Positions 4,368 to 48,500 are shown, numbered from the stretch's first letter. The stretch: DNA of 64,000 bases from Magnetococcales bacterium (GCA_015228815.1 JADGCV010000006.1:1723-65722), one strand, 5' to 3'. Numbers and translations are program-made. The notes: generated by a model not told the origin, from the letters alone.

Positions 4368-4396
4368 ACTGATCCGGGCATTTGATGCCGCAGGGC

Positions 4397-4464: not shown

Positions 4465-4494
4465 TCCTGATCAAAATGGAAATGGCACGGACCG

Positions 4495-30788: not shown

Positions 30789-30811
30789 ACCCCGATTGAG
30801 AGATAACCTGC

Positions 30812-30847
30812 AAACCGGCTCCGGGTCATTCCGGGCCGGTTTTTTTT
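30812..30847 (+). terminator. Rho-independent terminator after glgP
   Basis: AAACCGGC(T)CCGG / CCGGGCCGGTTT stem with one bulged T, loop GTCATT, followed by T8 (30840-30847). It lies 24 nt after the glgP stop. Confidence 0.65.
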
Positions 30848-30897
30848 CATCGGGTCAACAAGGCTTTTTTCAAACATTTTTGAGCCATGCCCCAACC

Positions 30898-31281
30898 ATG
30901 TCACGCCTATTGATTATCGATGATGATCCGGCAATCCGGGATATCGCCAACAGGATTCTGGGACGCGCGGGTCATGACCTGGAGACCGTGGCGTCCGCCG
31001 AGGAAGGTTTGGCCCGGTGCGATAAGACTCGATTCGACCTTGTGGTGACCGACCTGACGCTGCCAGGCATGAGTGGCGCATCGTTCGCGCAAATCGTTCG
31101 GCAAAGGTTTCCCTGGATGCGAATTCTTGTTTTTTCGGGTCTTCTGTCCACCCCCGAGACGGCCATTCCTTTGGACCTGGTCCCGGACACGCCGCATCTC
31201 CATCTTCTGGCAAAACCGTTCCGGCCCAGGGAATTGCTGGCAGCGGTCACGGCATTGCTTCAGCATGAACCGGAAAAATAA
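30898..31281 (+). CDS. Single-domain response regulator (CheY-like receiver, 127 aa)
   Basis: MSRLLIIDDDPAIRDI..FDLVVTDLTLPGMSG..LLAKPF shows the acidic pocket, phospho-Asp and conserved Lys positions. The ATG at 30898 is preferred over the longer tracked ORF that overlaps glgP. Confidence 0.8.
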   Translation: MSRLLIIDDDPAIRDIANRILGRAGHDLETVASAEEGLARCDKTRFDLVVTDLTLPGMSGASFAQIVRQRFPWMRILVFSGLLSTPETAIPLDLVPDTPHLHLLAKPFRPRELLAAVTALLQHEPEK

Positions 31282-31637
31282 TCAATCAAAACGTCACGAT
31301 CAAGATCAGGTCTGATTCCTGCTTTTGCATTGACACAGTGTCGTTTTTTCTCAATAAACAACTAAATATTTTTGTATAATTATCATTCAAGGAGTCGCAC
31401 GTTTTTATACTTATTGAAAACACATGTGACAGGAAAAGTGAGTCACCGAATTTTCTCTCTTGACATATAAACTATTTTCGTGGTAATCAATTATCAATAT
31501 CGTATTTATATGATAATATAATCATTACAGAATCTTATATAAATAATTCATTTTTTTTGATGCTATTTGTTATGAGTCGCTTAATTATTTAAATAATATC
31601 ACACCTGCTCCAGCAGTTTGATGACCGGGAACCAGAC
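31282..31637 (+). promoter_or_regulatory. Strongly AT-rich 356-bp upstream region of the low-GC cluster
   Basis: The composition switches abruptly from the GC-rich flank. It contains TTGACA at 31460-31465 and many short A/T inverted repeats (e.g. TTATCA..TGATAA). No ORF of 60 aa or more. Confidence 0.4.
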
Positions 31638-33290
31638 ATGACGATTGATACTTCAAACTTATCTTTCAAGGTGCTCAACCTTCAAGGAACCCCCTATGAA
31701 CAGGGTATACAGCATGGCCAGTACCTGAAACATGAAATTCACGACGCATTTGATCATTGTGTCAAAAGATGGGGAATGAATCGTCATCGCTGGGACCTGG
31801 ATCAATTGATCACATTTGCCCATCATTGCCATCAACAAGCGCAACCCCGGTTTCAGGAAGAAATCAAGGGAATCGCGGATGGTTCGGGAATCAATTTTGA
31901 TCATCTGCTTTCATGGAACTACCTGGATGATTTCTGGGAAAATATACATTGTTCAGCCTTTGCCGTTCATGGTCCAGGAACAACCAGAGGGAGAATGATC
32001 GTTGGGCGCAACAACGACTATGAAGATGACCACTCCAGCCCCTATTCCGTCACCATCATCAGACAAGGCGATCCCAACCGGAAAATGACCCTCTGTCATA
32101 CCTGGTCTGGACAGGTTGGCACCTATGAAGGAATCAACGAAGAGGGGTTGGTGATTGGCATCCAGTTCATCGGTACCCTGATCGAGGAAAAAAATCTTCA
32201 GGGTCAATCGATCAAACAAATGGGTCTGGATCTTTTGGAGAAATGCGCGTCTGTTTCGGAGGTCCCTTCCTTCATTGCATCCAGTCCGAGAAACTTTAGT
32301 GGCAACTTGCTGGCTGCAAACCGGGAGACGGCCATGGTTGTTGAATTTACCAGTCATCGCCATGAGGTTCGGCATCCTGAAAACAATACAATCACGGCAA
32401 CGAATCATTATTGCTCCCTGAAACCGCCGGCAGAACCATCCATCGGGTCTTTCCAAACCGAACTTCGTTACCAGGTTCTTCAGGACCGGATCAAACAACA
32501 CGATGGGACCATCGACCCGGATGTGGCGTGGCAAATCCTTTCCAGCCCCCCTGTTCAACAAATGGGACCTCCGCGCCATGCCTATTTTTCTCTGCGCTCA
32601 ACCCTTTTCTTTCCGGATGATGTCAGTACACAGGTAGCCCATGGTGTTCTTCCTGCGGCGCGGGGACCTTTTTTGCAGATCAGTTTGCCGCAAATGAAAG
32701 GAAAAAGGGCGGGTCTGTCGTACATTCCCTTTCCCCCAATGACCAGCGACCCATTCTTGTCGCCACCCGAATGCATTGTGGACGAACGCGATTTACACAC
32801 CATTGGAGACTATTGCATCAAGGAACGAACTGTCGCTCTTCAAGACGGACATCGATTGCCACGTGCAACGGTCTCAAGTTCAGACTCGGTTGTTATTGTT
32901 CCATTGACGGAAGATGGACAGGTGAGAATGATACGTCAATTCCGACATTCGGCCCAGAAATGGCTGCTTGAACTGCCCGCGGGAGGTATCGAAGCGATGG
33001 AACTACCCTTCGATGCCGCTAAAAGAGAATTAAAGGAGGAAACAGGAGATGTCGCTCCAAGATGGAAGAAGCTTGGTGGATTTTATAGTGCGCCCTATGT
33101 CTTGACAGAATATCTGCATCTTTATCTTGCCCAAGGAATCATTCCCGGAAAACAAGAACTGCAACCTGGAGAACATATTCTTACAGAAACTTTCCCATGG
33201 AAAGACGTGATTGAAAAAATAAGGATTGGCGACATCGAAGATTGCAAAACAATCGCTGCAATCATGATCGCTGCTCAAAATATCATGTAA
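31638..33290 (+). CDS. Fusion protein: peptidase-C45 / acyl-CoA:6-APA acyltransferase-like Ntn-hydrolase domain + C-terminal Nudix hydrolase domain (550 aa)
   Basis: The N-terminal half has an Ntn-hydrolase-like nucleophile context, NIHCSAFAVHGPGTTRGRMIVGRNNDY. The C-terminal ~170 aa carry an intact Nudix box GGIEAMELPFDAAKRELKEETGDV (Gx5Ex7REUxEExGU). Confidence 0.75.
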   Translation: MTIDTSNLSFKVLNLQGTPYEQGIQHGQYLKHEIHDAFDHCVKRWGMNRHRWDLDQLITFAHHCHQQAQPRFQEEIKGIADGSGINFDHLLSWNYLDDFWENIHCSAFAVHGPGTTRGRMIVGRNNDYEDDHSSPYSVTIIRQGDPNRKMTLCHTWSGQVGTYEGINEEGLVIGIQFIGTLIEEKNLQGQSIKQMGLDLLEKCASVSEVPSFIASSPRNFSGNLLAANRETAMVVEFTSHRHEVRHPENNTITATNHYCSLKPPAEPSIGSFQTELRYQVLQDRIKQHDGTIDPDVAWQILSSPPVQQMGPPRHAYFSLRSTLFFPDDVSTQVAHGVLPAARGPFLQISLPQMKGKRAGLSYIPFPPMTSDPFLSPPECIVDERDLHTIGDYCIKERTVALQDGHRLPRATVSSSDSVVIVPLTEDGQVRMIRQFRHSAQKWLLELPAGGIEAMELPFDAAKRELKEETGDVAPRWKKLGGFYSAPYVLTEYLHLYLAQGIIPGKQELQPGEHILTETFPWKDVIEKIRIGDIEDCKTIAAIMIAAQNIM

Positions 33291-33313
33291 TCTTTTGCCG
33301 ACATAATAAACAG

Positions 33314-36300
33314 ATGATAGGCAATCAGATCATAATTATTAAACATCCAACCGAACATCCTGATCGGAATTCGGTCACCTCGGAACATTTTGGACACAAG
33401 GGAACCAATTGTTTCCGCTTGAGTTGGCTCTTGAATACATCCCTGACCCCGACAACCGTATTGGTCGGAGCAGGCATATTCAATGAATATATTTCAACAA
33501 TTTCAAATGAGTATTCCAGATTGTCCGCAACTGATCACCTGTCAGATCATGTTTTTGCGGAAATTGTGGAACAAGACTTTCCCAGATGGTTGCGGACGAA
33601 TCATGAGGAACTACTTCGCCGAATTGCCCGTGTTTTCGGCAATGTTCGAATCGCGGTTCGCAGTTCCGCCAATGAAGATTCAAACGAATGTTCCAATGCG
33701 GGACGTTTTCGATCCATTTTGAACGTTGAGATTTCAGATCTGGCTCGCGCAATGGGTCAGGTGGCTGGAAGTTATTTGTTGCCAAATTATGTTTCCGAAG
33801 ATACCTGTCCTGCCGAATATAATTGGAAGAACCAACATCAAACAATATTCGGCGCCTTTCTGATACAGGAGATGATCGGGTCTCCACTTTCAGGATCTCA
33901 AGCACAACTGGTCCCACTGCTTCATCCCGCTTTGATTGAAAAGATTGCGCTTGAAACCAGGAATGTCATGAAAAACGGCTTCAATGACAATCCAGTCGAT
34001 ATGGAGTGGGTCATTGTCGCACAGGATGTCACCGTATCGGTGTTATCCTTTTCCATGGAGCCCAATACCGGGGCGGATGTGGTTACCATTTCCTGCGCCT
34101 TCGGGGCGGGAGTGATTGTTCAGGGAAATAACAACGCAATCAGTACCTATTATCATGACCCGGATCAACCTGAAGCGACATTTGTCCAAACGCCTCCATC
34201 ATGTTCAACACAATGGATCGGAAAGGAAGCAAAAGTTTACGCTGTTCAGGCAAGACAAACAATGATTCGCGGCAAGACAAACCAATCTTATATCCAACAG
34301 ATTAATGAAAATCATGGCGGTATTCATATCATTCATGGTGAACCACTTGTAAATTCAGGTGCGGTTGCGAAAGGATGGATTCTTTTTTCTCAAAGCATCG
34401 AGTCTGCCTGGCATGACCATGTCAACATGGACAAGAAAGATAAGGATCGTTGTGCCGGCGTCGTGGTGATGAGCGGTTCAACCATGGACCATTACGCCAT
34501 CTTATTCCGAGAAAACTCAGTAAACGTCTTTTTACTGAACACAAATGAATTCCATCGTTTTCTTGACCGGCCCAATCAACATATTGCAACAGATCCGCAA
34601 AACAGTCGGTTACTGGCCTGTGCCAATAGAAAAATTTTACTAAACCTGCCCGTTCAACCAGGAGTATGTCTTTCAAGATCACCCGCATGGATTTCAGCCG
34701 ATTTTTTCCATTTCCGTGATATGAATACAATCCATACTCCATCCGGTTCTCAACCATCAACACCGCATGTTTTCTTTCGTCATGGAATCCACCGTAGGAT
34801 AATGACAACAATTAATTTCATGGGGAATTGCATTGAGGAATGGATTGCACCATATTTCGATGCCGATCATCACAGGAAGGAAGCGCTCTTCCAGTCCTTG
34901 AACACTCTGAAGGTCCTGCTTCATCAGGCGAACGATGCCACAGGTTCCGATCCGCAATGGCGGACGGTCAGAGTTCAGGTGAACTCATTACTTTCGGTTC
35001 TGGCGGCATTGGAAACGTCAATAAATCGCGGATGCAAGGAAACCGTCTCATTCTATTACAAGATGATTGAAAGACATGTCGCTACCTTTCCTCGGCGTCG
35101 CACTGGCATGTCGCACACATTCCCCATAGGTAACTGGCTGGAAGAGGTGGATCGGACCATTCTCCAACTGGTCGATTCAGGGATTGTCGGCCTCCATGAT
35201 CTTGACCCGGAACAATGGGCAGATCGACCGGAAATGCTCCAACTCATCCACCTTCGGGACCGATTGAGACCTCGCCAGCCATGGACCCCCACAACACTTC
35301 CTGAACCAACAGCCGATCAGGAACACACTCTGGCTGCTTGCCAACTTCTGATCGACCTGTATGGAGAAGAGGCGCGTCTTGAACTGACCCGTTTGGAACC
35401 ACTGGCTCTTTGCGCTTCCTCCTTCTCCAAAATGGAAATGATCCAGAAATTATTGAACAATAAGTGTATTTCTGGAAAACAAAATTTCTCGGAACTGCTC
35501 TCTGTTCTCAGGTTTTATCGTTCCATTCATCAGGATATATTCTGTGAAATTACCGAAGCCATGCTTCTCAGCGCCATATCGGATCCAGGTTTTCTTGACC
35601 GGTTGCGTTCATTCGACCCATTGCAGGATGGGGGGCGTCACCTTGTCGAAGCATGCGGTGGAAATCTTTCATTTCAAATTTTGTCCAATTCTTTTCTTCA
35701 CGCAAACCCACGATGGTCACAATCATTATCGTGTCTTATCGATGCTTTGAACAATACAATGCAGGAACGCCAAGACCTCATTGAATTGGGCACGGTTGGT
35801 CGGTTTGAAGCATTACAATCCATGGATCGGGTTGTTTCGATCATTATCTCACCATTGATCGACCTGATTCAATTGGCGATAACAGATTGTTGCAACGCTG
35901 TTCCTGGATGGACGCATCAATTGATCGGCAATTCCTTGGACGCTGTCTTTGAACTCTATGACGATCTTGGGAAAATGTGTTGCAATCGACTTGCAAGGAA
36001 TGATTATGGCATCTATGATGTTTATTTGAAACATCTTAATGCCTGGTTTTCCACTATATCAAGAGTCTACGCACATGTGGGCATTGCAGATAAAGAAAGA
36101 TATTTTTCATACATTTCCACTAAATTAAACGAAATAGATTCACAACGTCCCCATGGTATCGGCTTGAATGAGAGAACATGGAACGATCTTATTTTCAGGT
36201 ATTCCAATCATCCGATAAATATTCACCAGATTCATAATGTCCTACACCAATCTGAACTGGAACTTCGCGGCAACTGGCTCCAATTACAGCCCATTCCTGG

Positions 36301-37189
36301 AACAAAATTACAGCAAATACTCCGGATTGCCAATCGATTCGCCCTCAATGAAAACAGATTGCTGCGCGTTTCGACCAATAGAATTGAACTTGACCTGGCC
36401 CTGTCAAAACATAAGTCACTCGCAAGGCTGTCTGATGATCATTGCCTGTTCGAATTCATCGAACTGCCTTCCCTGACCCGAAGACTGCAAGGACGCCAGG
36501 CGCGAATTCACTCGTTTGTTACTTGGTTGAATATTATTTTCAATGATAATCATTATAATGTGCATCACCAGTTCCATATCAATGTCAACGATCAGATGAT
36601 TCGAATCCGTATCGATCGACATGGAGAACGATTGAATGCCGATGAGATTGTCATCTTGTTCGAAAATGTCAAGACACTGTTCGACTGCTCTCACCATTTT
36701 GCCCGCTGCCCTACCGATATGGTCGATCGTTTCAAAAAATTCAATCATTCAAAAAAAATGCATCTGTTTTTCATCCTTCTCAGAGACTATTGCCGCCGTT
36801 TTGATTATTCACGACAGCGACATCGCGCCAGAAACAATTATGCATCATACATCCTCACCTATGTGAGCTTGCACCCGGATCTGTTTGATGTTTTATTGAC
36901 AAAATTGGACATGGGCTACAAACAATTCCTGAATGATGCAAGAAGAAGACTTGGTCATCGTCCGCCATTCAAACAAAACTATTTCAGGCATTGGAAAACC
37001 ATGAACCTGGAAAAAGTGTTGCTCTTATTGCTTTGCATTCGTTATCCACTGGAAATGATGCATGAATATCAGGTCAATCCCGAACGGTTGCTGACTCTTT
37101 TCAAGAAAAAAGATCTCCGTATTCACCTTTTCGACGGCGCCACAGCGAATGCGATGATCCATTCCATATCAGGGGACAACGCAAGATGA
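33314..37189 (+). CDS. PEP-utilising-enzyme-like phosphotransferase (PPDK_N ATP-grasp + swivel phospho-His domain) with ~850-aa uncharacterised C-terminal region
   Basis: IAVRSSANEDSNECSNAGRFRSILNV matches the (A)VRSSAxxED...AGQ..(Y)LNV signature of PEP synthase / PPDK / rifampin-phosphotransferase N-domains. GVVVMSGSTMDHYAILFRENSV matches the mobile-domain T-x-x-H-x-A-I-x-x-R-E phospho-His motif. I recognise no motif after roughly residue 440. The ATG at 33314 is preferred because the tracked start at 33242 overlaps the upstream gene. Confidence 0.7.
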   Translation: MIGNQIIIIKHPTEHPDRNSVTSEHFGHKGTNCFRLSWLLNTSLTPTTVLVGAGIFNEYISTISNEYSRLSATDHLSDHVFAEIVEQDFPRWLRTNHEELLRRIARVFGNVRIAVRSSANEDSNECSNAGRFRSILNVEISDLARAMGQVAGSYLLPNYVSEDTCPAEYNWKNQHQTIFGAFLIQEMIGSPLSGSQAQLVPLLHPALIEKIALETRNVMKNGFNDNPVDMEWVIVAQDVTVSVLSFSMEPNTGADVVTISCAFGAGVIVQGNNNAISTYYHDPDQPEATFVQTPPSCSTQWIGKEAKVYAVQARQTMIRGKTNQSYIQQINENHGGIHIIHGEPLVNSGAVAKGWILFSQSIESAWHDHVNMDKKDKDRCAGVVVMSGSTMDHYAILFRENSVNVFLLNTNEFHRFLDRPNQHIATDPQNSRLLACANRKILLNLPVQPGVCLSRSPAWISADFFHFRDMNTIHTPSGSQPSTPHVFFRHGIHRRIMTTINFMGNCIEEWIAPYFDADHHRKEALFQSLNTLKVLLHQANDATGSDPQWRTVRVQVNSLLSVLAALETSINRGCKETVSFYYKMIERHVATFPRRRTGMSHTFPIGNWLEEVDRTILQLVDSGIVGLHDLDPEQWADRPEMLQLIHLRDRLRPRQPWTPTTLPEPTADQEHTLAACQLLIDLYGEEARLELTRLEPLALCASSFSKMEMIQKLLNNKCISGKQNFSELLSVLRFYRSIHQDIFCEITEAMLLSAISDPGFLDRLRSFDPLQDGGRHLVEACGGNLSFQILSNSFLHANPRWSQSLSCLIDALNNTMQERQDLIELGTVGRFEALQSMDRVVSIIISPLIDLIQLAITDCCNAVPGWTHQLIGNSLDAVFELYDDLGKMCCNRLARNDYGIYDVYLKHLNAWFSTISRVYAHVGIADKERYFSYISTKLNEIDSQRPHGIGLNERTWNDLIFRYSNHPINIHQIHNVLHQSELELRGNWLQLQPIPGTKLQQILRIANRFALNENRLLRVSTNRIELDLALSKHKSLARLSDDHCLFEFIELPSLTRRLQGRQARIHSFVTWLNIIFNDNHYNVHHQFHINVNDQMIRIRIDRHGERLNADEIVILFENVKTLFDCSHHFARCPTDMVDRFKKFNHSKKMHLFFILLRDYCRRFDYSRQRHRARNNYASYILTYVSLHPDLFDVLLTKLDMGYKQFLNDARRRLGHRPPFKQNYFRHWKTMNLEKVLLLLLCIRYPLEMMHEYQVNPERLLTLFKKKDLRIHLFDGATANAMIHSISGDNAR

Positions 37190-38694
37190 ACAATCATTTG
37201 AAAGAACCGGCCCCGTTCGGCATCCTGGATTGGTCACCGGAACGGGTTCGGACCCTGGGGAGACAGATCATCGAATTGTGGGCCACCCACCTGGAACGCC
37301 TGCCATCGCTGCCGGTTACCAGACATTTGTTGCCAGAACAGGTCAAGGATGCCGTTACCTGTCCCATACCGGAGGAACCCCTTTCCGACCACCAGCTGCT
37401 GGATCACCTGAAGACCCTGTTCGTGGATCATTCCATTCATACTGGCCATCCGGGTTTCCTGGCGTACATCATGGGGATTGGAACGCTTCCTGGTACCCTT
37501 GCCGATCTGGCGGCGAGTGCCTTCAATCAGAATCTTGGCGCATGGCGACTCTCACCAGGCGCAACGGAAATCGAACTGTATCTGATCCGTTTTTTTGCCC
37601 GGCGGTTCGGACTTCCGGACACCGCCGGCGGGATCACGGTTTCCGGTGGCGCCATGGCCAATTTCATCGCACTGAAGGTGGCCCGGGACCAAAAGGGCGG
37701 ACAAGGTCTCCGTGAATCGGGTCTGTTCGGCGGTCAACGACTCATGCTTTATGCCTCGGAACGTGCCCATGTGACCATCGACCGGGCTGTGGATATGCTT
37801 GGACTGGGAACGCGATCCCTGCGCAAAATTTCCACGGATGATCAACATCGAATGCGTCTTTCTCATCTGTCCGAAGCCATCGAGCAGGACCTGAACGATG
37901 GATACGTCCCCTTTGCCCTTGTCGGCACCGCCGGCACCACGTCCCTGGGTTCCATCGATCCACTGGATGAACTCGCCAAACTCTCCCGCCGGTATGGCAT
38001 GTGGTTTCATGTCGATGGCGCCTATGGTGCGGCAGCGCTGTTGGCTGAAGGGCTTCGACCCCTGTTTTGCGGAATCGAAAAGGCCGATTCGATCACTTTC
38101 GATCCTCACAAATGGATGTACGTCCCGCAATCGGCGAGCATCGTCCTGTTCCGACAGGTGTCACAATCCGCCAACTCGTTTACCTCGGATGGCGATTATG
38201 TCTTCGAAGACAAGGAACTTACCGGCAGCGGCGTGGACATGTCCGATCTTGGACCACAATGGAGCCGGGGCTTCCAGGCCTTCAAGGTCTGGTTTTCCCT
38301 TTTGGCGCATGGCAGAAAAGCAATAGCGCAACGAATACTTCATGATGTTCGACTGACACAATTCTTTGCCGATTGCGTGACCGCACATCCTCGATTCGAA
38401 CTCATGGCCCCGCCAAATCTGTCCATTTGTTGCTTTCGCTATATACCAGAGGTCGTCTTCACGGAACCGGAACGTTGGGAGTCTCATTTGAACAAACTCA
38501 ATGAAAGGCTCATGACGGTCGTCCAAAACAATGGAAAGTTCTATCCGTCGAATGCCATCGTGAATCATAAGTTTGCACTGCGCATCTGTATCGTTAATTT
38601 TCGTACCGAGGCCGAAACTCTGACAAGTCTTCTTGATACCATTGCGGTTATTGGTGATCAAGTCCATAAAGAACTACTGAGCCATGACCATTGA
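37186..38694 (+). CDS. Group II PLP-dependent amino-acid decarboxylase
   Basis: HPGFLAYIMG, SGGAMANFIALKVARD, and the PLP-lysine block SITFDPHKWMYVPQSAS. The ATG overlaps the upstream stop (ATGA at 37186-37189). Confidence 0.85.
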   Translation: MNNHLKEPAPFGILDWSPERVRTLGRQIIELWATHLERLPSLPVTRHLLPEQVKDAVTCPIPEEPLSDHQLLDHLKTLFVDHSIHTGHPGFLAYIMGIGTLPGTLADLAASAFNQNLGAWRLSPGATEIELYLIRFFARRFGLPDTAGGITVSGGAMANFIALKVARDQKGGQGLRESGLFGGQRLMLYASERAHVTIDRAVDMLGLGTRSLRKISTDDQHRMRLSHLSEAIEQDLNDGYVPFALVGTAGTTSLGSIDPLDELAKLSRRYGMWFHVDGAYGAAALLAEGLRPLFCGIEKADSITFDPHKWMYVPQSASIVLFRQVSQSANSFTSDGDYVFEDKELTGSGVDMSDLGPQWSRGFQAFKVWFSLLAHGRKAIAQRILHDVRLTQFFADCVTAHPRFELMAPPNLSICCFRYIPEVVFTEPERWESHLNKLNERLMTVVQNNGKFYPSNAIVNHKFALRICIVNFRTEAETLTSLLDTIAVIGDQVHKELLSHDH

Positions 38695-38741
38695 CAAAAT
38701 CGCGTCCGCACCATGAATCAATTGAAAACAGGTGATGACAA

Positions 38742-40313
38742 ATGGGTACAAAAACTGCACAAGAAAGAATTCGCATGGGGTTCTCTCTGCACGAGGCCGT
38801 TCGCCATTGGGCGACCTATACTCCGGAAAAACCCCTGCTGATCAATGAACATCTTCACATCACCTATCGGGAAATTCAGGAAAAGATCATAAAAATTCGC
38901 GCCGTTCTGAGTGCTCGTCATCTTGAACCACAAACACCGATCGGTCTGCTCATGGACGATAAACCGATCTATCTGGCATCGTTATGCGCCATCCTGTCCG
39001 AGGGACACAGTGTTGTCATTTTGAACGTGGCCATCCCTGGAAATCTGCTGGCCAACATGATCCACGATTGCCAATGTCCGCTGTTGCTGACCCATGAAAC
39101 ACTTCTGGAAAAAGCGCGGCAGATCGATTGCGATCAAATCCTGGTCGATCGCATGCTCCAACAAACCCCGACCACCTTCGATCCAGCCCCTTTTCGGAAT
39201 CCAGAAAACTACAATCCAAGATACCTGGACCAGATCTGGGGCACCATCTACAGTTCGGGAACGACCGGACAACCCAAAGGGGTCGTTCGCACCGATCTGT
39301 CAATCTTGTCCGAATTGATCGGTTGGTGCTTTGAAATACCGATCGTTCGCTCCTCGACCATCTATATCAGTCGTCCGATTTATTATACGGGTGGTTTGGT
39401 TCTCAGCGCCGCGGCAATGCTTGCAGGCGCCAGCATCATTGCACCCGTTCTTCACAGTGAAATAAATTACCACGATCTGTTAAGCCGACATTCCGTTTCC
39501 ATGGCCTTCATGCTTCCCAGTGAGGTCGATCAATTGATCCAGGCCCGGATCGCATCGAGTCTGCCATGGCCTGCCCCGGAGAAAATCCTTACCATGGGCG
39601 CGCCAACATCCGTCACGTTGAAAAAATTAACAAAAAAATGGCTTCATTGCGATTATATCGAATCCTGGGGAAATTCAGAAGGTCTTGGCACAATCACCGA
39701 TCCCGATGATGTGGAACGTCGTCCCAAATCCATTGGCCGTCCCTTTCTCACCGATCGCATGTTCATTCTGAACGACAAACGAGAAATAGTGCAGAATCAG
39801 GAAATCGGTCTCATCAGTGGTATTGCCGACAGTAATTTCTCGGAATACAGAAACAGAAGTGATTTAAATCAGGAGGCAATCAACGACGACCGGGTTATTT
39901 CGGAAGACCTTGGCCATATCGATCCGGATGGCTATTTCTATATCGTTGGTCGCACCGTGGATCGCATGATTCGAAATGGACATGTTGTGTTCACCTCCGA
40001 CATCGAACGCGCCATGCTGCAAACCGAAAACTTCGAAGCCGCCAAAGTTGTCGCAATCGAACGGCCCGGAAAAGACGCAATACCGGTTGCGGCTGTGGTA
40101 TTGAAACCATCCATCACCAAAACGCCCGAGGACTTGTTACAGGATATTCACTCCTTGCTTCCACCAGAACAACATGTATCAAGTATTCTTATAGTCAATC
40201 AATTGCCGATGAATGCCGCCGGCAAGGTTGACCTCAATGCGGTTCGGGCACTGTTTTGCAAGGATGGAGCGAACTCTTTTCAAACACCAACAAATCAAGG
40301 AATAAAATCATGA
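38742..40313 (+). CDS. Adenylate-forming (ANL superfamily) acyl/aryl/amino-acid ligase
   Basis: Core A3 motif YSSGTTGQPKGVV. The 523-aa length and the C-terminal NAAGKV lysine block are typical of acyl-CoA synthetase / stand-alone adenylation enzymes. No carrier-protein or condensation domain is visible. Confidence 0.85.
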   Translation: MGTKTAQERIRMGFSLHEAVRHWATYTPEKPLLINEHLHITYREIQEKIIKIRAVLSARHLEPQTPIGLLMDDKPIYLASLCAILSEGHSVVILNVAIPGNLLANMIHDCQCPLLLTHETLLEKARQIDCDQILVDRMLQQTPTTFDPAPFRNPENYNPRYLDQIWGTIYSSGTTGQPKGVVRTDLSILSELIGWCFEIPIVRSSTIYISRPIYYTGGLVLSAAAMLAGASIIAPVLHSEINYHDLLSRHSVSMAFMLPSEVDQLIQARIASSLPWPAPEKILTMGAPTSVTLKKLTKKWLHCDYIESWGNSEGLGTITDPDDVERRPKSIGRPFLTDRMFILNDKREIVQNQEIGLISGIADSNFSEYRNRSDLNQEAINDDRVISEDLGHIDPDGYFYIVGRTVDRMIRNGHVVFTSDIERAMLQTENFEAAKVVAIERPGKDAIPVAAVVLKPSITKTPEDLLQDIHSLLPPEQHVSSILIVNQLPMNAAGKVDLNAVRALFCKDGANSFQTPTNQGIKS

Positions 40314-40909
40314 ATAACATTCTTCTTGTTATCGATGCCCAGAAAATCTACTCGGATCCAGATTCGGTGCTTTATTGTCCCGAAGTTCATTCCACTCTGG
40401 AAAAAATAAACACACTTGTGCGATCGTTCGAAGAACGAAACAAAGGTATCGTTTTTGTGCGGCATATGCACCTGCACGACGGGTCGGATACGGGAAGAAT
40501 GTATGATTTTTCAGGTCAGAGTGATGGTACGTTCAACTTTGTCCAGGGAAGTGATGAGGTCGAATTCATGGATGACCTCCACCGTCCCATCACTGCGATG
40601 ACAATAACAAAAAATCGTTACTCTGCGTTCGTCAACACGGATCTGTCCCGATTGCTGACCTCGTTGAAAGCGGATACGGTCACCATTTGTGGTTTCATGA
40701 CCCAGTTTTGTTGCGAATCCACTGCCCGTGATGCCCATGACCGTGATTTTCATGTTCACTTTATCGTCAACGCCACGGGAAATCCCGGCAGCCCCTCCCG
40801 AACCCAGGAGGAAATTCGCGACATGACCGGAGAAACGTTGCAGGAGGGGTTCGCCCTGGTTCATCGATTGGATGACTTTCTGTCGAACGCCACGGAGCTT
40901 TTGGGATGA
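40310..40909 (+). CDS. Isochorismatase-family cysteine hydrolase (199 aa)
   Basis: MNNILLVIDAQKIY start (ATGA overlap at 40310-40313). Catalytic-Cys context VTICGFMTQFCCESTARDA. There is no fused aryl-carrier domain. Confidence 0.8.
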   Translation: MNNILLVIDAQKIYSDPDSVLYCPEVHSTLEKINTLVRSFEERNKGIVFVRHMHLHDGSDTGRMYDFSGQSDGTFNFVQGSDEVEFMDDLHRPITAMTITKNRYSAFVNTDLSRLLTSLKADTVTICGFMTQFCCESTARDAHDRDFHVHFIVNATGNPGSPSRTQEEIRDMTGETLQEGFALVHRLDDFLSNATELLG

Positions 40910-41826
40910 TTGCCAATACAGTCCTGGATCTTGTCGGCAATACCCCATTGCTGAATCTCGGTCCCCTGTTCCCGGAAATGAAGGCGATTCTCTATGGCAA
41001 GGCGGAGTTTCTCAATCCCATGGGTAGCGTCAAGGAACGACCAGCCCTGGCAATGGTCGAAGAGGCCGAACGGACCGGTCGTCTCCGGCCCGGCATGACC
41101 ATCGTGGAACCAACCAGCGGCAATACCGGACTGGGACTGAGCATGGTGGGCGCGGTCAAGGGATACAAAGTCTGGATCCTTGTCGAGCGGGATATGGCGG
41201 GAGCAATTGCCCGTGTGGCCCGGGCCTTGGGGGCGCAAACCATCTTGACGGAAAATTTCAACGAGGCTGTGCGCCTGGCGGAATCCATCCAAAAAGAAAA
41301 CCCAGACCGTTATTTCCTGCCCCAACAATTCACCAATCCAGCCAATCCCCAAATCCACGTCCATACCACGGCGCAAGAGATCTTCGATGACCTCGGTCAT
41401 AACCTGTGCGCTTTTGTACATGGATATGGTTCGGGCGGAACATTCACCGGAGTTGCAAGGGCATTGAAACAGTTGAATCCAAAAATTCGTTGCGTTCTTG
41501 TTGAACCGGATACCCTGCGTCGATTCTCCGGTGGTCCCGTCACCGGATCCCAGATTCACGGCATCGGCCCGCCGTTCATTCCCCGAAACCTGGATCAGGA
41601 ACTTATCGATGACACGATCGCCGTTTCCGAAGAACAAGGTTATGAGATGGTCGTAAAACTGGCGCGCCGCTGCGGGGTTCTCTGCGGTCCGTCATCCGGC
41701 GCAATGGTCCATGCCGCTGCAAGAATCGCCGCGGACTATGGCAGCGGCGATGCCGTAGTCACCATTCTCCCCGATCGTGGCGATCGATACTTCGGGAGTG
41801 ATTTTTTTCCAGAAACCAGTACGTGA
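40906..41826 (+). CDS. Cysteine synthase / CBS-family fold-type II PLP enzyme (beta-replacement type)
   Basis: GNTPLLNL, PLP-lysine block NPMGSVKERPA, and EPTSGNTGLGLS loop. ATGA overlap at 40906-40909. Confidence 0.85.
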   Translation: MIANTVLDLVGNTPLLNLGPLFPEMKAILYGKAEFLNPMGSVKERPALAMVEEAERTGRLRPGMTIVEPTSGNTGLGLSMVGAVKGYKVWILVERDMAGAIARVARALGAQTILTENFNEAVRLAESIQKENPDRYFLPQQFTNPANPQIHVHTTAQEIFDDLGHNLCAFVHGYGSGGTFTGVARALKQLNPKIRCVLVEPDTLRRFSGGPVTGSQIHGIGPPFIPRNLDQELIDDTIAVSEEQGYEMVVKLARRCGVLCGPSSGAMVHAAARIAADYGSGDAVVTILPDRGDRYFGSDFFPETST

Positions 41827-41842
41827 CCGAACGGTATCCAAA

Positions 41843-42568
41843 ATGACCCGTACAACGCATCCCGGTATTTCGGAAGTCAATCGACAACGGTTTCATGTCC
41901 TTCCTCATGGGACACAGGATGGAGGGAATTGTTTGATTTCCATTGATGACCTGGAACGAATGGCCCAATTGGGACGGTTGAATCTTGATGAAGACCATGG
42001 ACTCTTTCTCGGATGGAGCGAAAAGAAATTCACGGCAATGAAACCTGGACCATTCCGCGGGAAAATAAAATTCATGTCATCCGTGTCGGCCACGGACACC
42101 ACCAAACCGGATGGTCATGAAATCCTCTCGATGCCCTCTTGCGCCGCGGCATGTTTCGATTGGGTCGCCGCCACCGTGGACTGGTCTGTCCCGGAAACCG
42201 CATCTTTTCTTTCGACCGTTTTCGATTGCCTCAAACCTGGAGGGCGGTTTGTTTTCATACGCACCCTCAATCGGACAGGACAGGGTTTTTTTCCTCTACC
42301 CAAAGGAAAGCGGGCATCGATTGCCAATCTTTCCAACCAGTTTGAATCATTGCTGTCCGCCGGTTTCGAACGATTGAGTTACGTTGATCGATCCATGGAA
42401 CTGAAAGTCTCGTTGGCGTCCGCTTTGACAGATCGCCCATCTGCCCCCGGCGATCCCCATTCAGCGGATACCCTGGATTGGTTGCAAACACTGTTGGCAA
42501 CCGTTGATTCGGGCGATACCGGACAAGGACTTTTCATGGGATTCCGTCCGTGCATGATCCGCTTTTGA
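41843..42568 (+). CDS. Hypothetical protein with partial class I methyltransferase-like features
   Basis: FDWVAATVDWSVPETASFLSTVFDCLKPGGRFVFI resembles the post-motif-II/III region of SAM-dependent methyltransferases. No clear GxGxG SAM loop is seen upstream. The start at ATG 41843 was chosen to avoid overlap with the upstream gene. Confidence 0.4.
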   Translation: MTRTTHPGISEVNRQRFHVLPHGTQDGGNCLISIDDLERMAQLGRLNLDEDHGLFLGWSEKKFTAMKPGPFRGKIKFMSSVSATDTTKPDGHEILSMPSCAAACFDWVAATVDWSVPETASFLSTVFDCLKPGGRFVFIRTLNRTGQGFFPLPKGKRASIANLSNQFESLLSAGFERLSYVDRSMELKVSLASALTDRPSAPGDPHSADTLDWLQTLLATVDSGDTGQGLFMGFRPCMIRF

Positions 42569-42581
42569 GAACCAACCCCAT

Positions 42582-45500
42582 TCATGGCAACACGGTCATG
42601 GTGTCGTTGGGAACTTCGGAAAAAATTTCCGGGGAATACATCGCCTCCACCCGGGTCGGAGGCAGTTGGAACGTGCCCGCGGTATTCAAACGCACCGTAT
42701 ATTCCACCTGCCATCCTCCTTTGGGAACCCATTCATAATAGACACGGTACGAGTCGAAGGTGCGCTCGGTCATGGCCGGCCAGACCCACCCCCGGGATTG
42801 CTCCCCGGCAGTCATCATCCGTGAATCCTTGCCCAAACCACTCCCCAACACCACACTCCCCGCGGGAACCGGATCCATGACCACCACCCAACTCATATCG
42901 GCCTGCGCGTCCAGTTCCAGACGTACCCGGTACAGGTCGCCACGATGCCATTCACCTTCCTTTTGACGCTCCAACGCGGTCACCGTTCTCTTGACCTGAT
43001 ACCCGGACAACAGGGGTTCCGTCAGCATCACCGCCGCCCTGCTTTCCACCATCAGCCATGGTTTTCCTTTTCCCTCATGATGAACCACCAGAGAGGCCGG
43101 TCCCTCGGACCACGGGTGCTGCACCGTTCCCCCCTGGGGTTGGACCGACCAGTCGATCGTTTTCCCATCGGAAGCAAACGAACTCGTACTCGTCCCCGAA
43201 ACCTTTTCCTTTTCGAACACCTCCGAAAAACGACGAACCGCCAACGTCCCCCAGGCATTGGCGACACTGGTGTTCCAATGGCCCCGCCGCTGCCGCGACA
43301 AACTGCCCCGCATCATCCGTCCCACATCCTCTTTCCAGCCCGCATCCGCCAACACCGTCAATACCGCCCGATTGGCATTGACATCGGGCGAGACCATCAG
43401 CCACCACAGATAATCGCCATTTTCCGTCGAGAATCTCATGGAGCCGCCCGAAAAGTTCATGCGTGTACGCAAAACATCCAAGGCTTCCCGGCGAGACGCC
43501 TCACGGTCTGGCCACGGCTCCCGGTTCAGAAGATCGATCCAATCCAATACCGTCGATGTTGGCCAATGCGCGGGATCGACGGTGACGGCGCCGGCATGAT
43601 TGGCGGTCAGCGCACCATACCGCGACAGCGCCGCCATGGCAGCAACACGGCGCAAGGTTGAATCGGCAACCCTGTATCCCGAATCCCGTCGTATCCGCCC
43701 CTCGACGAAACCAAGCAATCCCTTCTTCATCGCAGCCAGCGTCGCATCGGGAATCGTCCACCGCGCTTCATCCGCCACGGCCAGAAGATAACTGGTCAAG
43801 GATTCGCTGCCCCAGGACATTTGCGGAAAAAATTTGACCAGCCCCTCCGAATCCAGATGGCTGGGAAGCGCTGCCATGGCCTTGCCCCAAAGTTCCAGGT
43901 CCTCCAGGGCAATCGCCCGGGAAACCCTCTGTTCCATGCAGGTGTAAGGGTAGTCCCGCATGTAGGAAATCACACCCGTCAGCCCCGAGGCGAGGCTTGC
44001 CGTCAGCGAAACCCCCACGCCACCCCGTCCCGGAAGGGCGCCCTCGGGCTTTGCCCATGCCATTGTCGCCTCGTTTTCCAGCTGCGACAGGGTCGTCTGT
44101 AACACACGCACCGCAACCGCGGGGATGACCTCCTGTTGCACCTTGAGGCGATCACCGACCCCCCCCATGTCCGCCACGACCTCCCAGGACAGCGATGCGA
44201 CATCGGGAACCTTCACGTCCCAGAACACCTCCCTCGCCTCGCCCGGAGCCAGGGCCACCTCCTGGGGGGGAAGCGTTTCCACCCGCCCTTCCGCCGTGGT
44301 GCTGGCCGCGATTTTTCCCTGGACCGGTTTTTCTCCGGCATTGCGAATGGTGAATCCACCCTGGAACCGATCACCCGCCCGCACCAGTGGCGGCAGACCC
44401 GAAAACAATACAACATCGCGTGACACACGAATGCTGGTCTCCCCGGTGCCGAACAAATCGGCCCCGGCGGTCGCGACCGCGACGATGCGAAAAGAGGTGA
44501 TGGAATCGTTCAACGGAATCTTCGCCCGCGCCCTGCCATCGGCGTCCAGTTGGATCCGCCCCTGCCAGAACAACAGCGTATCGAACAACTCCCGGGACAG
44601 GCCCCGGCCACCACCGCCGCCATGAGGAAGGGCCTTCTTGCCGAAATGACGCCGTCCCACCACATGCCCCATCCCCGTCGCCGCCTCCACCTCCATGCCG
44701 CGCGGCGCCATCATGTGTTCCAAAAGTTGCCAACTGCCATTCGGCAACAATTCCAACAACCCTTCATCGACCGCCGCCAGAGCGATCTCGCCCCCTGGGG
44801 GAAGCGGTTTGCCGCTGGCGCGATGGACCACCACCGTCACCTCCGCCGATTCGCGCGTCTTGTAGACCGTCCGATCCGCGCCGACCCCAACCTTGAGTTC
44901 ATAATCGCGGTAGCCCACCTCCAGTTGCGTCATGCCCAAACGCAAGGAGGGCCGTCCCAGATCGACCAATGCCGTCGGTTGCGATTCGCCACTGCGTCCC
45001 CGGACCGCCATCACCGCCACAAAGACATTCGGTCCATAATGGCCCAGAATCGGCAGCGAAACCCGTGGCGACCGGCGCGAAAGCGGTTGGACATAGGTAT
45101 CCATCACCCCTTCCCGGGCAACGACCACCAGGGCCGTCGCCTCCTGAAACGGCAGCCGCGCCTGCAATAGGGCCTCTTCTCCCGGTTCGTAACGCCGTTT
45201 CTCGGGAACAAGATCCATCCGGTCGCCATCCCGGGTATGAAACCAGGTCTCGTCCGAATCATCATGGACCCACAGGTCATCATGAACCTCCCCGACATGG
45301 CCCGCCTCATCGACAACCCGGGCCTGAAGAATCAGATTCCCGGATCCGGGCGGAACCCCCTCGCAAAACAATCGGCCCAGGGCATCACTCTTCCCGGAAC
45401 AGAATTCCTTGATCGGCGTCACCTCCTCATGATGATCATAGGAATAAAAGCCGCCCAATAAACGTTTTCTATGACTGAATGTTTTACGTTGCAAAAGATC

Positions 45501-48500
45501 GACCCGCACAACCAAACCTTCCCGGGGCTTGCCGGAGGGATCAAGCGTCGCCACCTGGAGGCGAATTTCTTCCGTTTTCCCGATCCAGCCAACCGATTTG
45601 ATGCCGACGACCACCGGTGAAGGCCACAGATTCATCCGCGCCGAGGAAACCAGGATTTCGCCATTGGGGTCGCGGTATTCCATCTCCGCCAGGAGACTTT
45701 TGGGCGCCGCGATTTTTTTCCATCCTTCCAGGGACACCCTTCCGCCACCCGCGGCATCGAGTTGAGTCGAAATGACCGGCAACGAACGGGTCTGGTCCCC
45801 TTCCACCAGGTCGGCGGTCTCTTCGGCGGCAGACGCCTCTCCATCACCCGTCCGTCCCGGTTCGACTGCCCCATTGGCCCACGTAAATTCCTCATATCCC
45901 GGAAAAGTCACCTCCCTTGGGGAAATCATCCCGCGAATCCGGATGGGGGCATGCCCTGCCGCCCCTCCGGCCAAATAATTCACCTGGACATCCAATTCCG
46001 ACCGGAGCGGATCGACCAGATCGACGGCGACCGGCTTGACGACACCCCGCATCAGAGGTACACGAAAGGCTTCGACACGGAAACTGCCACTCGAAACACC
46101 ATCCATCATGATTTCATAGGTCCCCAACCGCGCCTCCTTCGGAATCTCGAACCGGGATTCGGCCACGCCTGTCGCATCCCAGGAAAGGGTCAAGGGGTAT
46201 TCGACCGTCCCACCCGCATGACGCAGCGTTCCCTTGGTGGGAAGGGAATTCCTGTCCTGAAAAGCGAAGCCCGAGCGCTCATGCCGCCGGAACAGATGTT
46301 TCATGTGGACCGTTTCCCCGGCGCGAAACAGGCTGCGATCAAGAATCGTGTACACGCGATGCGGTTTGGCGGTCATCGGCCCCGGCAGATCGAATTGCCA
46401 ACTTTGGATGCCCTTGTTCCAGTCCGACATGACGAATGTGACATCCTCGCCAAGGCGGGAGGTCACCAGATAAGCCCGCGATCCACCGGAACATTCGGCA
46501 ATCGTGTCGGGCTGGGGCAATTCCTTCTGAATGAAAAACCGCCCCTCCCCGTCACTTGTTCCCTGGGCGTACACCTTGCCGGAACAATCGGAAACCGTCA
46601 CCTCGGCCCCGGCGACGGGACGACCGCTGTCAAGCGCCGTCACCCACACCAGGGAGGATTCCCTGCCGTGGAAAAAATGTCCCGCCAGATTGGTGACCAG
46701 GGCGGCTGCCTGGACATAATAGGGTCTGGGTTGACCATGCAGTGCCGCTCCCAGACGATGGCTCGCCAGTTCCACCACATAAAATCCCGGCCCGGGCAGG
46801 GGAATGCCCATGACTTCGAATTCCTTGGCGCCATTGGGTTTGGGAAGGACAAACGTGGACAGGGAAGGAATTTGTTTCTCTGAAAAAACCGACTCATCGC
46901 CAAACTTTCGATCGATGCGGCGGATCCAGGCAGGAAAATCGACTGGATTGGTCACCTTGAAGATGCGACCACGGATTTCGGCGGTCTCCGTGCCCCCCTC
47001 GGAGACGGCAACGGGATGGCCGGGATCCGCGGCGACGATCGATTCCAAATGGCGCACCGTCACGGGAAGCGCCGGTTCCGAAGCGGCCTCGATGATGCCG
47101 AATTGCGCGGGAAACTTGGCCAATGGGGGCATTTCATCGATGACAATTTTCATTGGGAACGAACTCATATTTTCAAGCTCGCGTCCTGAATCATCCTTGA
47201 AGCCGGTCGGCAGTTCCAAAAGCAATTCCTGCTTTTCCGGAAACGGCGGGGGAAAATAAACCCTCGTGACCAACTGGGCGCCGGAATCATCATCCACGAC
47301 AACGGGATGCCGTGCGACATCCGGCCCCTTGAGGATCATTTGTTCCGCCACTGCCCGCAACACCGGGGCATTGAAATTCACTTCCAGGGAGACAAGTGGC
47401 AGACAATTGGCATCCTTGTTGACCCTGCCACAGGTCAATTCGGCCAGGAACGGCTCCCGAACTTTGAACCGTTGCACCTGATCCTTCACCCTGGCCACCC
47501 CGGATCGCGAACGGACACCCGCGCTCCATATCAGTGAAACATCACTTCCCGGAGGTAATCGACGCTTGCATTGGACCCCTGCGATCGGGGCGCCGGGGGT
47601 TTTCAGAAACTGACGCATCCGATGAGAATCGTTCCCCACCTCGGTCGCTCCCGGAGTGGTGGCCTGATTCTGGTCCAAAGCCGCGATCCCCCGGCTCAAG
47701 AAAAACTGGACCAGTTCATCGGAGGCCTGGATCAGGGGCGCCACTTCCTCGGTGGACAGAACACGAACCTCGATTTTCTCGGCGATGCCGCCTGCCTGAC
47801 AATGAACCAACGCTTCGATCGATGCCGGATCGGCAGGGGCATCCAACCCGAGGAGAAACACCTGATCTTCCTCGATCATGCGCCACGGCTGCGAAAAAAT
47901 GATTTCCGGTCCACCTGTCGAAAATGAGAAATTTCTTTCCCCAGAGAGTGAAAGACCATCGAGCGACTTCACCGAATCCTTCAACTGGAATGAACATTGA
48001 AGACCGGCGGACAGGTCCTGCTCGAAGTCGTAGACCCAGTTGCGCCCATCGACCCAGCGTCCCTTGCCCTTCGCGGGACACTGGACAATGAACGGATCCT
48101 CAAGGCGCGGGTCGCCCAGGGGAACCATGGGATGGGTGAACCGAACCGTCACCTGCCGCACCTGTTTGGTCTCTCCCCGCGGTTTGGCCCATTCGATTCG
48201 CGGAGTGGCCTCGGGTTTGGCGGGCGCGGCAGGTGCGGCAACGCCAATGTTCAATACGCCGATCCGTCCCTGGTACATTTCTTCAAGACATCGAACCGCT
48301 CCCTTGGCATCGTCGAGCGCCGCCCCCTGCCTGTCGGGGATACCACAGCGCTCCAGGCGATCGGCCAACCATTGCCGCTGTTCCTGTCGCAGTTTTTCCT
48401 CCTGATCCGCCCCCGCCTCCTTTTTTTTCCTGGAATAGGCGCGGCCCATCGCCCCGTCGAGTCGGGAAAGATTTTCATCCCCACAGATCAGCACCTCCAC

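Follow-up and report, generated by a model that had tools for sequence, protein, structure and literature searches.

A low-GC gene cluster in a Magnetococcales genome as a candidate horizontally acquired operon of an orphan biosynthetic type

Positions 31282-42568 of a 64,000-nt stretch from a Magnetococcales metagenome-assembled genome (MAG; this stretch is hereafter the window, and all coordinates are counted from its start) hold a cluster of seven genes. We propose, with moderate confidence, that the cluster is a horizontally acquired operon for a pathway that makes a specialized small molecule with neither a nonribosomal peptide synthetase (NRPS) nor a polyketide synthase (PKS). Three unrelated lineages share the enzyme set as a conserved functional unit, and gene fusions couple the step of its C45-family enzyme to a decarboxylase and to a Nudix hydrolase. 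Judging from the enzyme families, the product is most likely an acylated, phosphorylated amine derived from an amino acid of the serine/cysteine type. The operon is an orphan, non-canonical biosynthetic type, not a new category of system. Its parts are as follows.

31282-31637, AT-rich spacer, left edge of the compositional island
g1, 31638-33290, plus strand, C45 domain fused to a Nudix domain
g2, 33314-37189, plus strand, BtrA-like protein of 1291 residues with a PPDK_N segment
g3, 37186-38694, plus strand, group II pyridoxal phosphate (PLP) decarboxylase
g4, 38742-40313, plus strand, ANL adenylate-forming ligase
g5, 40310-40909, plus strand, isochorismatase-family cysteine hydrolase
g6, 40906-41826, plus strand, PALP-family, CysK-like enzyme
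g7, 41843 (alternative GTG start 41777)-42568, plus strand, no detected family, 241-263 residues

The enzyme set recurs in two other lineages, in which six of the seven genes have orthologs (31-54% identity). A contig from a gammaproteobacterial MAG (L001, 33% GC) encodes, in one direction, a deoxyhypusine-synthase-like (DS) protein, an isochorismatase-family protein, an ANL ligase, a PALP-family enzyme, a fusion of C45 and decarboxylase domains, a Nudix protein, a methyltransferase, a 1271-residue PPDK_N protein, and a pyruvoyl arginine decarboxylase (PvlArgDC). A metagenome contig (L022, 44% GC) carries an isochorismatase gene cut by the contig end, a PALP gene, a C45-decarboxylase fusion, an HIT gene, a Nudix gene, a methyltransferase gene, and a gene for a 1279-residue homolog of g2; a third contig, L023, represents the L001 lineage again. 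Together with the window this places six of the seven genes (seven domains) in clusters of three distant genomes, in which gene order and fusions differ. Identities to the window genes in L001 and L022 are 40% for C45, 38% for Nudix, 31-39% for g2, and 54% for the decarboxylase, with 34% for the ANL ligase (L001), 48-51% for the isochorismatase-like protein, and 54% for the PALP enzyme; L001 and L022 orthologs are 44-71% identical to each other. The ANL and isochorismatase-like genes are adjacent both in the window, where they are translationally coupled, and in L001. Because the C45 and g2 families are so rare, and yet are clustered together in shuffled order, chance clustering is not credible, and we argue from the conservation of the cluster across three distant lineages that its product is under selection. 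Nor is there pseudogenization, as the lengths of the genes match those of their homologs and the catalytic motifs are intact.

The related clusters also contain genes for which a tblastn search of the 64-kb window found no homolog, namely those for the methyltransferase, DS, PvlArgDC, and HIT proteins. The methyltransferase of L001 and L022 has N-terminal motifs that we take to be HemK/PrmC-like, with DLPW instead of NPPY, and these features suggest an N-methylation in both lineages. The L001 operon is bracketed by the DS-like gene (5787-6836) and the PvlArgDC gene (18021-18620; L023 4738-5337). These two genes suggest that agmatine or an aminobutyl (polyamine) unit feeds into the pathway in that lineage.

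The product of g1 joins a C45 domain of N-terminal-nucleophile (Ntn) type (about residues 1-360) to a Nudix domain (about residues 377-546). The former matches PF03417 (E = 5e-17, 62.8 bits against a cut-off of 23.2) and passes the cut-off of the NCBIfam model C45_proenzyme (NF040521; 172 bits, cut-off 85), and is thus predicted to be an autoproteolytic acyltransferase/hydrolase of the MEROPS C45 type, similar to the acyl-CoA:isopenicillin-N/6-aminopenicillanic acid acyltransferase (IAT). Its putative nucleophile, Cys105 (HCSAFA, 31947-31964), is invariant in five homologs. The latter domain matches PF00293 (E = 3e-14, 53.5 bits) and its Nudix box GGIEAMELPFDAAKRELKEETG (32982-33050) is intact on direct reading; the closest PDB entries are NudF/ADP-ribose (ADPR) pyrophosphatases, and the domain scores below the equivalog thresholds of NudE and ADPRase (e.g., 64.9 vs 169). 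A search with g1 among 5.8 billion clustered proteins returned just 12, the two best apart from g1 itself being proteins in which C45 is fused to a group II decarboxylase. The fusion partner of C45 is therefore Nudix in the window and the PLP decarboxylase in L001 and L022. C45-decarboxylase fusions include P0003, a stand-alone gene of Bacteroidota type, and P0004. In loci L004-L007 (e.g., L004 2645-5275), an 876-residue fusion of this kind, 40% identical to g1 and 51% to g3, adjoins two GNAT acetyltransferase genes among Bacteroidota-like neighbors (Por_Secre_tail, SprB), and no other cluster gene is present. The C45-decarboxylase pair can apparently function as a self-contained module.

The proposal of horizontal acquisition is based on composition. 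The island has 48.1% GC, some 9 standard deviations lower than elsewhere in the window, against a mean of 57.1% (standard deviation 0.97, minimum 54.7%) in the other 11.3-kb segments of the window, and comparison of 1-kb segments inside the island with the rest gives a Mann-Whitney p of 2e-6. GC at third codon positions (GC3) is 45-59% in the island genes versus 57-73% in the flanking genes, and rare codons are enriched (AGA from 0.03 to 0.16, ATA from 0.02 to 0.14), with TTA and NNA codons shifting too. The flanks are ordinary host genes: on the upstream side glgB, malQ, glgA, and glgP, then a receiver-domain response-regulator gene, and on the downstream side the minus-strand alpha-2-macroglobulin gene (42582-48680) along with a Ser/Thr-kinase/histidine-kinase gene. 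Because both GC and codon usage are shifted against these housekeeping flanks, we conclude that the cluster was acquired horizontally. The borders of the island revealed no tRNA integration site, flanking repeat, mobile-element scar, or riboswitch, and a search for plasmid-borne copies of the cluster found none. The 356-bp spacer at the left edge (30.6% GC) is presumed to be the promoter region; a riboswitch/leader scan of it matched no Rfam family, with a sub-threshold S15-leader match at E = 0.19.

Seven intact plus-strand open reading frames (ORFs) span 31638-42568. The products of g1 and g2 are identical to NCBI proteins encoded on a contig of 144 kb, and g3-g6 correspond to MBF0108265-68. 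Start and stop codons overlap as ATGA at 37186, 40310, and 40906, as read directly in the sequence, and the g7 stop lies 13 bp from the stop of the convergent alpha-2-macroglobulin gene. An earlier description of this DNA, which we call the sequence-only reading, had listed this layout of seven coupled plus-strand genes and the narrow convergent gap, a GC content below that of the flanks, an AT-rich cliff at the start of the cluster, the domain assignments of g1-g6, and the lack of any NRPS, PKS, transporter, or regulator. All of these descriptions hold: the layout, the cliff, and the deviations in GC and codon usage in the sequence as given above, and the domain calls in Pfam and NCBIfam, scans of which detected no NRPS, PKS, transporter, or regulator in the seven ORFs.

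The most unusual protein of the cluster is encoded by g2. Its ORF opens at 33242, and the ATG at 33314 lies 24 nt past the g1 stop. The NCBI model (1252 residues, start about 33431) leaves out the segment FGHKGTNC (33389-33412), and we prefer the ATG at 33314 because the NCBI start removes the family-conserved motif FGHKGxNC. Pfam detects PF01326 (PPDK_N) on residues 73-180 alone (E = 2.8e-10, 40.4 bits against a cut-off of 27), a match that covers profile positions 26-148 of 328. A profile of the g2 family matches phosphoenolpyruvate (PEP) synthases in PDB at E = 1.2e-13 and the His region of enzyme I of the phosphotransferase system (PTS) at E = 0.012. Across 38-41 family members 24 residues are invariant, including His393 in GSTMDHYAILFRE (34475-34513). 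In the alignment, the Gly and His of GS..DHYAILF fall on the phospho-histidine loop of PEP-utilizing enzymes; the corresponding domain, PF00391, was undetected in g2 and reached E = 0.018 in a Paenibacillus homolog. Further invariant positions form an ATP-grasp signature (VRSS..ED...AG, QEM, D.EW, Q.R) and a C-terminal set (D, K, N-x-H-x3-N-x2-H-Q, H-K, E, R), represented in g2 by NIHQIHNVLHQ at 36218-36250. As in PpsA, the ATP-grasp is immediately followed by the His domain. From these features g2 is predicted to be a PEP-synthase-like enzyme with the hallmarks of a phospho-histidine dikinase.

The remainder of the protein has no recognizable counterpart in PDB. An AlphaFold model built on a 38-sequence alignment (pLDDT 70.6, pTM 0.60), confident in the N-terminal 345 and the C-terminal ~470 residues, has an ATP-grasp, a small His domain rich in beta structure, a long stretch of helices, and a C-terminal domain of alpha/beta and helical structure. 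Its best Foldseek match in PDB is PPDK 1kbl (E = 0.011), with weak local matches to 5fbt and 5hv2 at E about 1. The family profile found no PDB match for the C-terminal ~850 residues, and Foldseek found none for the C-terminal half at E <= 0.001. The Pfam scan contained no PF02896, the C-terminal PEP/pyruvate-binding TIM barrel, and the rifampin-binding domain PF27448, which occurs in generic PPDK_N relatives, was undetected in g2 and in the proteins P0001 and P0014. NCBIfam scores of g2 are 18-38 bits against cut-offs of 500-1350. The sequence-only reading's PEP-synthase-type kinase with a huge unmatched C-terminal region is thereby recovered. Stand-alone proteins of 320-340 residues, which share 33-37% identity with the final ~280 residues of g2, lie between smpB and pyrD, a housekeeping context, in Bacteroidota-type contigs (L025 10001-11026, L026 10001-10960); since such forms exist, the domain at the very C-terminus of BtrA-like proteins is an independent module.

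The g2 family is very rare. A word-index search with g2 retrieved nothing else among 5.8 billion clustered proteins, and an exhaustive HMMER scan of 1.84 billion yielded 42 representatives, mostly of 1150-1500 residues, with E-values of 1e-134 to 7e-4 for the 41 other than g2. With the family profile, a word-index search drew mostly generic PEP synthases and, from the family, recovered only P0001 and P0014. Profile scans of genome contigs gave no confirmed relative with a two-sequence alignment and the Paenibacillus btr loci alone with a nine-sequence alignment; look-ups of genomic context by exact sequence returned no record for g3 or for g2 in its NCBI form. Within the family, the g2 proteins from the window and from L001 and L022 group more closely together (36-38% identity, versus 21-27% to the others), and all three close homologs (L001, L022, L023) sit in the same type of cluster as in the window.

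More distant relatives occur elsewhere, and in five out of five readable contexts they lie in clusters of aminocyclitol or aminoglycoside type, so we regard the g2 family as a marker of specialized metabolism. In Paenibacillus chitinolyticus (L019), the homolog (1230 residues, 25% identity over query residues 46-1228) is homologous over its full length. Upstream lie, in order, genes for a DegT aminotransferase, a radical S-adenosylmethionine (SAM)/SPASM enzyme, a GT4 glycosyltransferase, and a 604-residue weak phosphoribosyltransferase; downstream follow a class III aminotransferase, a 2-deoxy-scyllo-inosose (DOI)-synthase-like protein, PIG-L, an alcohol dehydrogenase (ADH), a short-chain dehydrogenase/reductase (SDR), a 156-residue ORF, and BtrH_N. 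We take this order to be that of the published butirosin map, btrS-N-M-L-A-B-C-D-E-F-G-H, and it is on this position that we identify the homolog as BtrA. All 24 invariant columns are kept in g2 and in this Paenibacillus protein. We know of no established function for BtrA, and the searchable literature yielded nothing reliable on it; one review assigns it to side-chain synthesis without evidence, an assignment that we did not use. L008 encodes two DegT aminotransferases, an ADH, a B12-radical-SAM enzyme, three class III aminotransferases, a radical-SAM/SPASM enzyme, and a TylF-like methyltransferase, with a nucleoside diphosphate kinase (NDK)-like gene immediately upstream of the g2 homolog. 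L024 encodes an aminoglycoside phosphotransferase (APH), radical-SAM enzymes, a GMC oxidoreductase, inositol-1-phosphate synthase, GT4, and PIG-L; L027 has a radical-SAM/SPASM enzyme, a DOI-synthase-like gene, and a methyltransferase; and L028 has an NDK-like gene and a radical-SAM enzyme.

A gene that handles nucleotides or phosphoribosyl groups consistently precedes BtrA-like genes. It is an NDK-like gene of ~345 codons in L008 (8927-9958) and L028 (80-1138), where it adjoins or overlaps the BtrA-like gene, and the weak phosphoribosyltransferase gene at the BtrL position (L019 8008-9822) in the butirosin cluster. In the window cluster, Nudix takes this slot beside the BtrA-like gene, and HIT is added in L022.

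For the remaining enzymes the superfamily, not the specificity, is known, because across the cluster all equivalog cut-offs were missed (CysK, SbnA, CapA, PanP, diaminobutyrate (DABA) decarboxylase, MenE, FadD, RutB, PncA, NudE, and PpsA). The decarboxylase g3 (PF00282, 226.6 bits) has its PLP lysine in DPHKW (38101-38115), scores below the cut-offs for PanP (211.5 vs 606), DABA decarboxylase (209.2 vs 900), and MfnA (98.5 vs 299), and is closest in PDB to 4obu, 4rit, a DABA decarboxylase, and DesA. The ligase g4 (PF00501, E = 2e-39, plus PF13193) retains the motif SSGTTGQPKG (39252-39281) and the C-terminal Lys in GKVD (40221-40232), and its best NCBIfam matches, none of which reaches the cut-off, are to models of fatty-acyl and o-succinylbenzoate CoA ligases. 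The 199-residue g5 product consists of a single PF00857 domain (112.6 bits) with no carrier-protein domain; its closest PDB entries are the "cysteine hydrolase" 3irv and a pyrazinamidase/nicotinamidase, and candidate Asp, Lys, and Cys residues were picked by eye in VIDAQ, TKNRYSAF, and CGFMTQFCCES. The CysK-like g6 (PF00291, 233 bits) has intact SVKER (41026-41040) and TSGNTG (41113-41130) motifs, misses the cut-offs for TIGR01139 CysK (296.9 vs 350.95), SbnA (200 vs 349.95), and CapA (173.5 vs 600), and has bona fide cysteine synthases as its closest PDB entries.

The seventh gene is a real ORF with island-like composition (GC3 = 51%). The sequence-only reading had called its product methyltransferase-like, a claim that is not supported: no methyltransferase HMM of Pfam or NCBIfam matches g7 even at E <= 5, and hhalign gives a probability of 0.2% against the L001/L022 methyltransferases. 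Pfam and NCBIfam produced no match at all (the best, Anamorsin_N at E = 0.04, is under cut-off), nor did PDB sequences or a tblastn search against all fetched loci, and the protein, with three tested starts, is absent from a collection of 15 billion proteins. A single-sequence AlphaFold model (pLDDT 34.6) is unusable.

These enzymes can be arranged in a scheme whose reaction order is inferred from the enzyme families. The CysK-like g6 would form cysteine or another beta-substituted alanine from an activated serine, and g3 would decarboxylate this product to a primary amine. A carboxylic acid, released from an amide by g5, would be activated by the coupled g4 as acyl-AMP or acyl-CoA, and the C45 domain of g1 would then move the acyl group onto the amine. 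Through a phospho-histidine, and with conversion of ATP to AMP and Pi, g2 may phosphorylate an intermediate or the product, for chemical activation or for self-protection; among PEP-synthase-like kinases in biosynthetic clusters there is TalE, and Cj1418 is a parallel case (PMC6482885). Finally, the Nudix domain, of ADPR-pyrophosphatase type, would hydrolyze a nucleotide-linked by-product or intermediate, and the occurrence of Nudix, joined by HIT in L022, suggests that a nucleotide-linked species exists. In the other lineages, the HemK-like N-methyltransferase, the HIT protein, the DS-like enzyme, and the pyruvoyl arginine decarboxylase may add tailoring or precursor supply. The central idea of the sequence-only reading, an uncharacterized pathway for an amino-acid-derived small molecule, agrees with the co-conservation, the intact motifs, the fusions, and the lack of a match to a known pathway, whereas its methyltransferase-like call for g7 is not supported. 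The order of reactions that it put forward (an amino acid made, decarboxylated, ligated, acylated, and phosphorylated) is putative but chemically reasonable. The likeness of g2 to BtrA, with other relatives in clusters of aminoglycoside type, was beyond what it could see.

Several observations weigh against our proposal. Each chemical step is derived from a superfamily, since the equivalog cut-offs were missed, and the sequence does not tell a biosynthetic from a catabolic direction. As its closest relatives are genuine cysteine synthases, g6 may simply supply cysteine, and the scheme does not explain the role of the Nudix domain. The cluster has no transporter, regulator, or resistance gene. 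Its conservation extends to three lineages only, all uncultured, and L022 is cut so that the status of its ANL gene is not readable. The DS and PvlArgDC genes of L001 are missing from the 64-kb window, and g7 is not conserved, having no counterpart in the related clusters, which carry the HemK-like N-methyltransferase in its place.

Comparison with known systems reveals partial likenesses, and no known pathway was matched: NCBIfam equivalogs were missed, searches with PADLOC and of the literature came back empty, and nothing usable was found on the gene combination or on C45-decarboxylase fusions. The last step of penicillin biosynthesis combines a phenylacetyl-CoA ligase with IAT, a C45 enzyme. 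The cluster likewise pairs an ANL ligase with a C45 Ntn enzyme whose nucleophile Cys is conserved, and g1 has weak, marginal PDB sequence matches to 2x1c and 2x1d (E about 4e-4), but the cluster lacks beta-lactam genes and its C45 domain is fused to Nudix or to the PLP decarboxylase. A CysK/SbnA-type enzyme followed by PLP decarboxylation is known from staphyloferrin B (SbnA/SbnH) and from the route to taurine through cysteate synthase and cysteine sulfinate decarboxylase (CSAD). These systems share with the cluster the presence of a CysK-family enzyme and a PLP decarboxylase in one operon, but the cluster has no SbnB, no NRPS-independent siderophore (NIS) synthetase, and no sulfite-related gene, and the equivalogs were missed. 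As with EntE/EntB, an ANL gene adjoins an isochorismatase-family gene in the window and in L001; g5, however, has no aryl-carrier domain and is closest to amidase-type cysteine hydrolases, and EntC, EntA, and NRPS genes are missing. Dihydroxybenzoate (DHB)-type siderophore synthesis was rejected, as there is no EntC, EntA, aryl carrier protein, or NRPS.

With regard to g2, the butirosin protein BtrA offers full-length homology and all 24 invariant residues, including the swivel His. The btr, L008, L024, L027, and L028 loci differ from the window in their neighbors, which are aminocyclitol, aminotransferase, radical-SAM, and glycosyltransferase genes instead of CysK-like, decarboxylase, ANL, C45, and Nudix genes. 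TalE of phosphoramidon biosynthesis, the glutamine kinase Cj1418, rifampin phosphotransferase (RPH), and PigC/RedH have in common with g2 a PF01326 domain followed by a His domain, predicted to be the mobile one in g2, within biosynthetic clusters, but the C-terminal ~850 residues of g2 match none of their substrate domains. Tentatively, and with considerable doubt, we suggest that BtrA-like proteins could be a new class of phospho-histidine (di)kinase with a previously unseen catalytic module in the C-terminal domain. It is similarly doubtful, though conceivable, that such an enzyme would place a phosphate or diphosphate, possibly on N or S, on an acylated aminothiol or polyamine-type amine.

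Among explanations that compete with a biosynthetic operon, a catabolic, salvage, or detoxification function seems unlikely. C45 and g5 would be amidohydrolases that cleave an N-acyl or nucleotide-linked compound taken up from outside, the ANL ligase would send the acid to CoA metabolism, the decarboxylase and the CysK-like enzyme would process the amino-acid part, and the dikinase would activate an unreactive group as phenylphosphate synthase does. This would fit the NCBIfam name of the C45 family ("acyltransferase/hydrolase"), the proximity of g5 to cysteine hydrolases and amidases and of the ligase to fatty-acyl-CoA ligases, the housekeeping ADPR-pyrophosphatase type of the Nudix domain, and the lack of export or resistance genes. 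However, all three clusters lack a transporter, a binding protein, and any regulator that responds to a substrate, and neither the beta-replacement synthase nor the N-methyltransferase would be typical of catabolism. The distribution is extremely rare and patchy, the composition is foreign, and members of the wider g2 family occur within biosynthetic clusters of antibiotic type. Alternatively, g2 could be a kinase for self-resistance that, like rifampin phosphotransferase, inactivates the end product, with the other genes making an antibiotic-like amide. The occurrence of g2 relatives in clusters of aminoglycoside type, where self-resistance kinases and phosphorylated intermediates are common, and the ATP-grasp and swivel-His architecture common to the rifampin phosphotransferase class (weak Foldseek matches 5fbt and 5hv2) would agree with this, but L024 has a separate APH-type kinase beside its g2 family member and PF27448 was not detected in g2, and we find this explanation quite unlikely.

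An improbable alternative is that the product is a phosphoramidate or is nucleotide-linked, with g2 forming an N-P or S-P bond, the Nudix, HIT, and cysteine hydrolase proteins processing nucleotide-phosphoramidates, and the HemK-like enzyme methylating an amide or amine N. Its precedent is that TalE and Cj1418, both PEP-synthase-like kinases, phosphorylate an amine and an amide, respectively (PMC6482885), and it would account for the L022 HIT gene between the C45-decarboxylase fusion and Nudix and for the nucleotide- or phosphoribosyl-handling genes that adjoin BtrA-like genes in L008, L028, the btr cluster, and the window. The motifs of the L001/L022 methyltransferase, on our own interpretation HemK-like, would also be in line with it. 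Yet the cluster has no nucleotidyltransferase, g2 resembles TalE and Cj1418 no further than in the shared ATP-grasp (best NCBIfam score 38 bits), and both HIT and the HemK-like methyltransferase are missing from the window. Far less probable than any of these is that the genes lie together by chance, form a decaying island, or make up an anti-phage defense system: against the orphan status of g7 and a faint PADLOC match to the Nudix region (E = 1e-4) stand six families clustered in three lineages, three coupled junctions, and intact lengths and motifs. PADLOC gave two marginal partial matches in all (E = 1e-4 and 9e-3) and no whole-protein match, and a defense system was rejected. Taurine or cysteamine formation, nicotinamide/NAD salvage, and generation of phosphoribosyl pyrophosphate (PRPP) by pyrophosphoryl transfer were considered and not adopted.

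If our proposal of a biosynthetic operon is correct, the cluster would be a compact one without an NRPS, PKS, or core gene for a ribosomally synthesized and post-translationally modified peptide (RiPP), and would be expected to escape genome-mining rules based on signature enzymes. The fusions of C45 to the decarboxylase and to Nudix act as Rosetta stones that show which steps are coupled. The operon gives a very rare family of ~1,250-residue kinases a second, simpler genetic context, through which the btrA-type gene of aminoglycoside clusters could become experimentally tractable. Should BtrA-like proteins indeed be a new kinase class, a new family of phosphorylated specialized metabolites, invisible to current mining rules, would follow, and btrA would be assigned a function. 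The island is also a record of lateral gene acquisition in the Magnetococcales, very few of which have been cultured.

Some further features of the window deserve mention. The receiver-domain gene just before the island (30622-31281) was excluded from it, being host-like at 55% GC; its longest ORF overlaps the glgP 3' end by 167 nt, and its true start is probably later because Response_reg covers residues 97-209 only. In the glycogen neighborhood (glgB, glgA, glgP) just upstream of the island, a minus-strand gene (17824-22260) encodes a 1477-residue fusion of CBM48, alpha-amylase-type domains, and MalQ 4-alpha-glucanotransferase. A second low-GC stretch (49-50% vs about 57%) at 4001-7000 may be another acquired segment. 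The ORFs at 4495-5298 and 5205-6260 have no Pfam match, and the ORF at 6257-8302 encodes a ParA-like ATPase N-terminus followed by TPR repeats.

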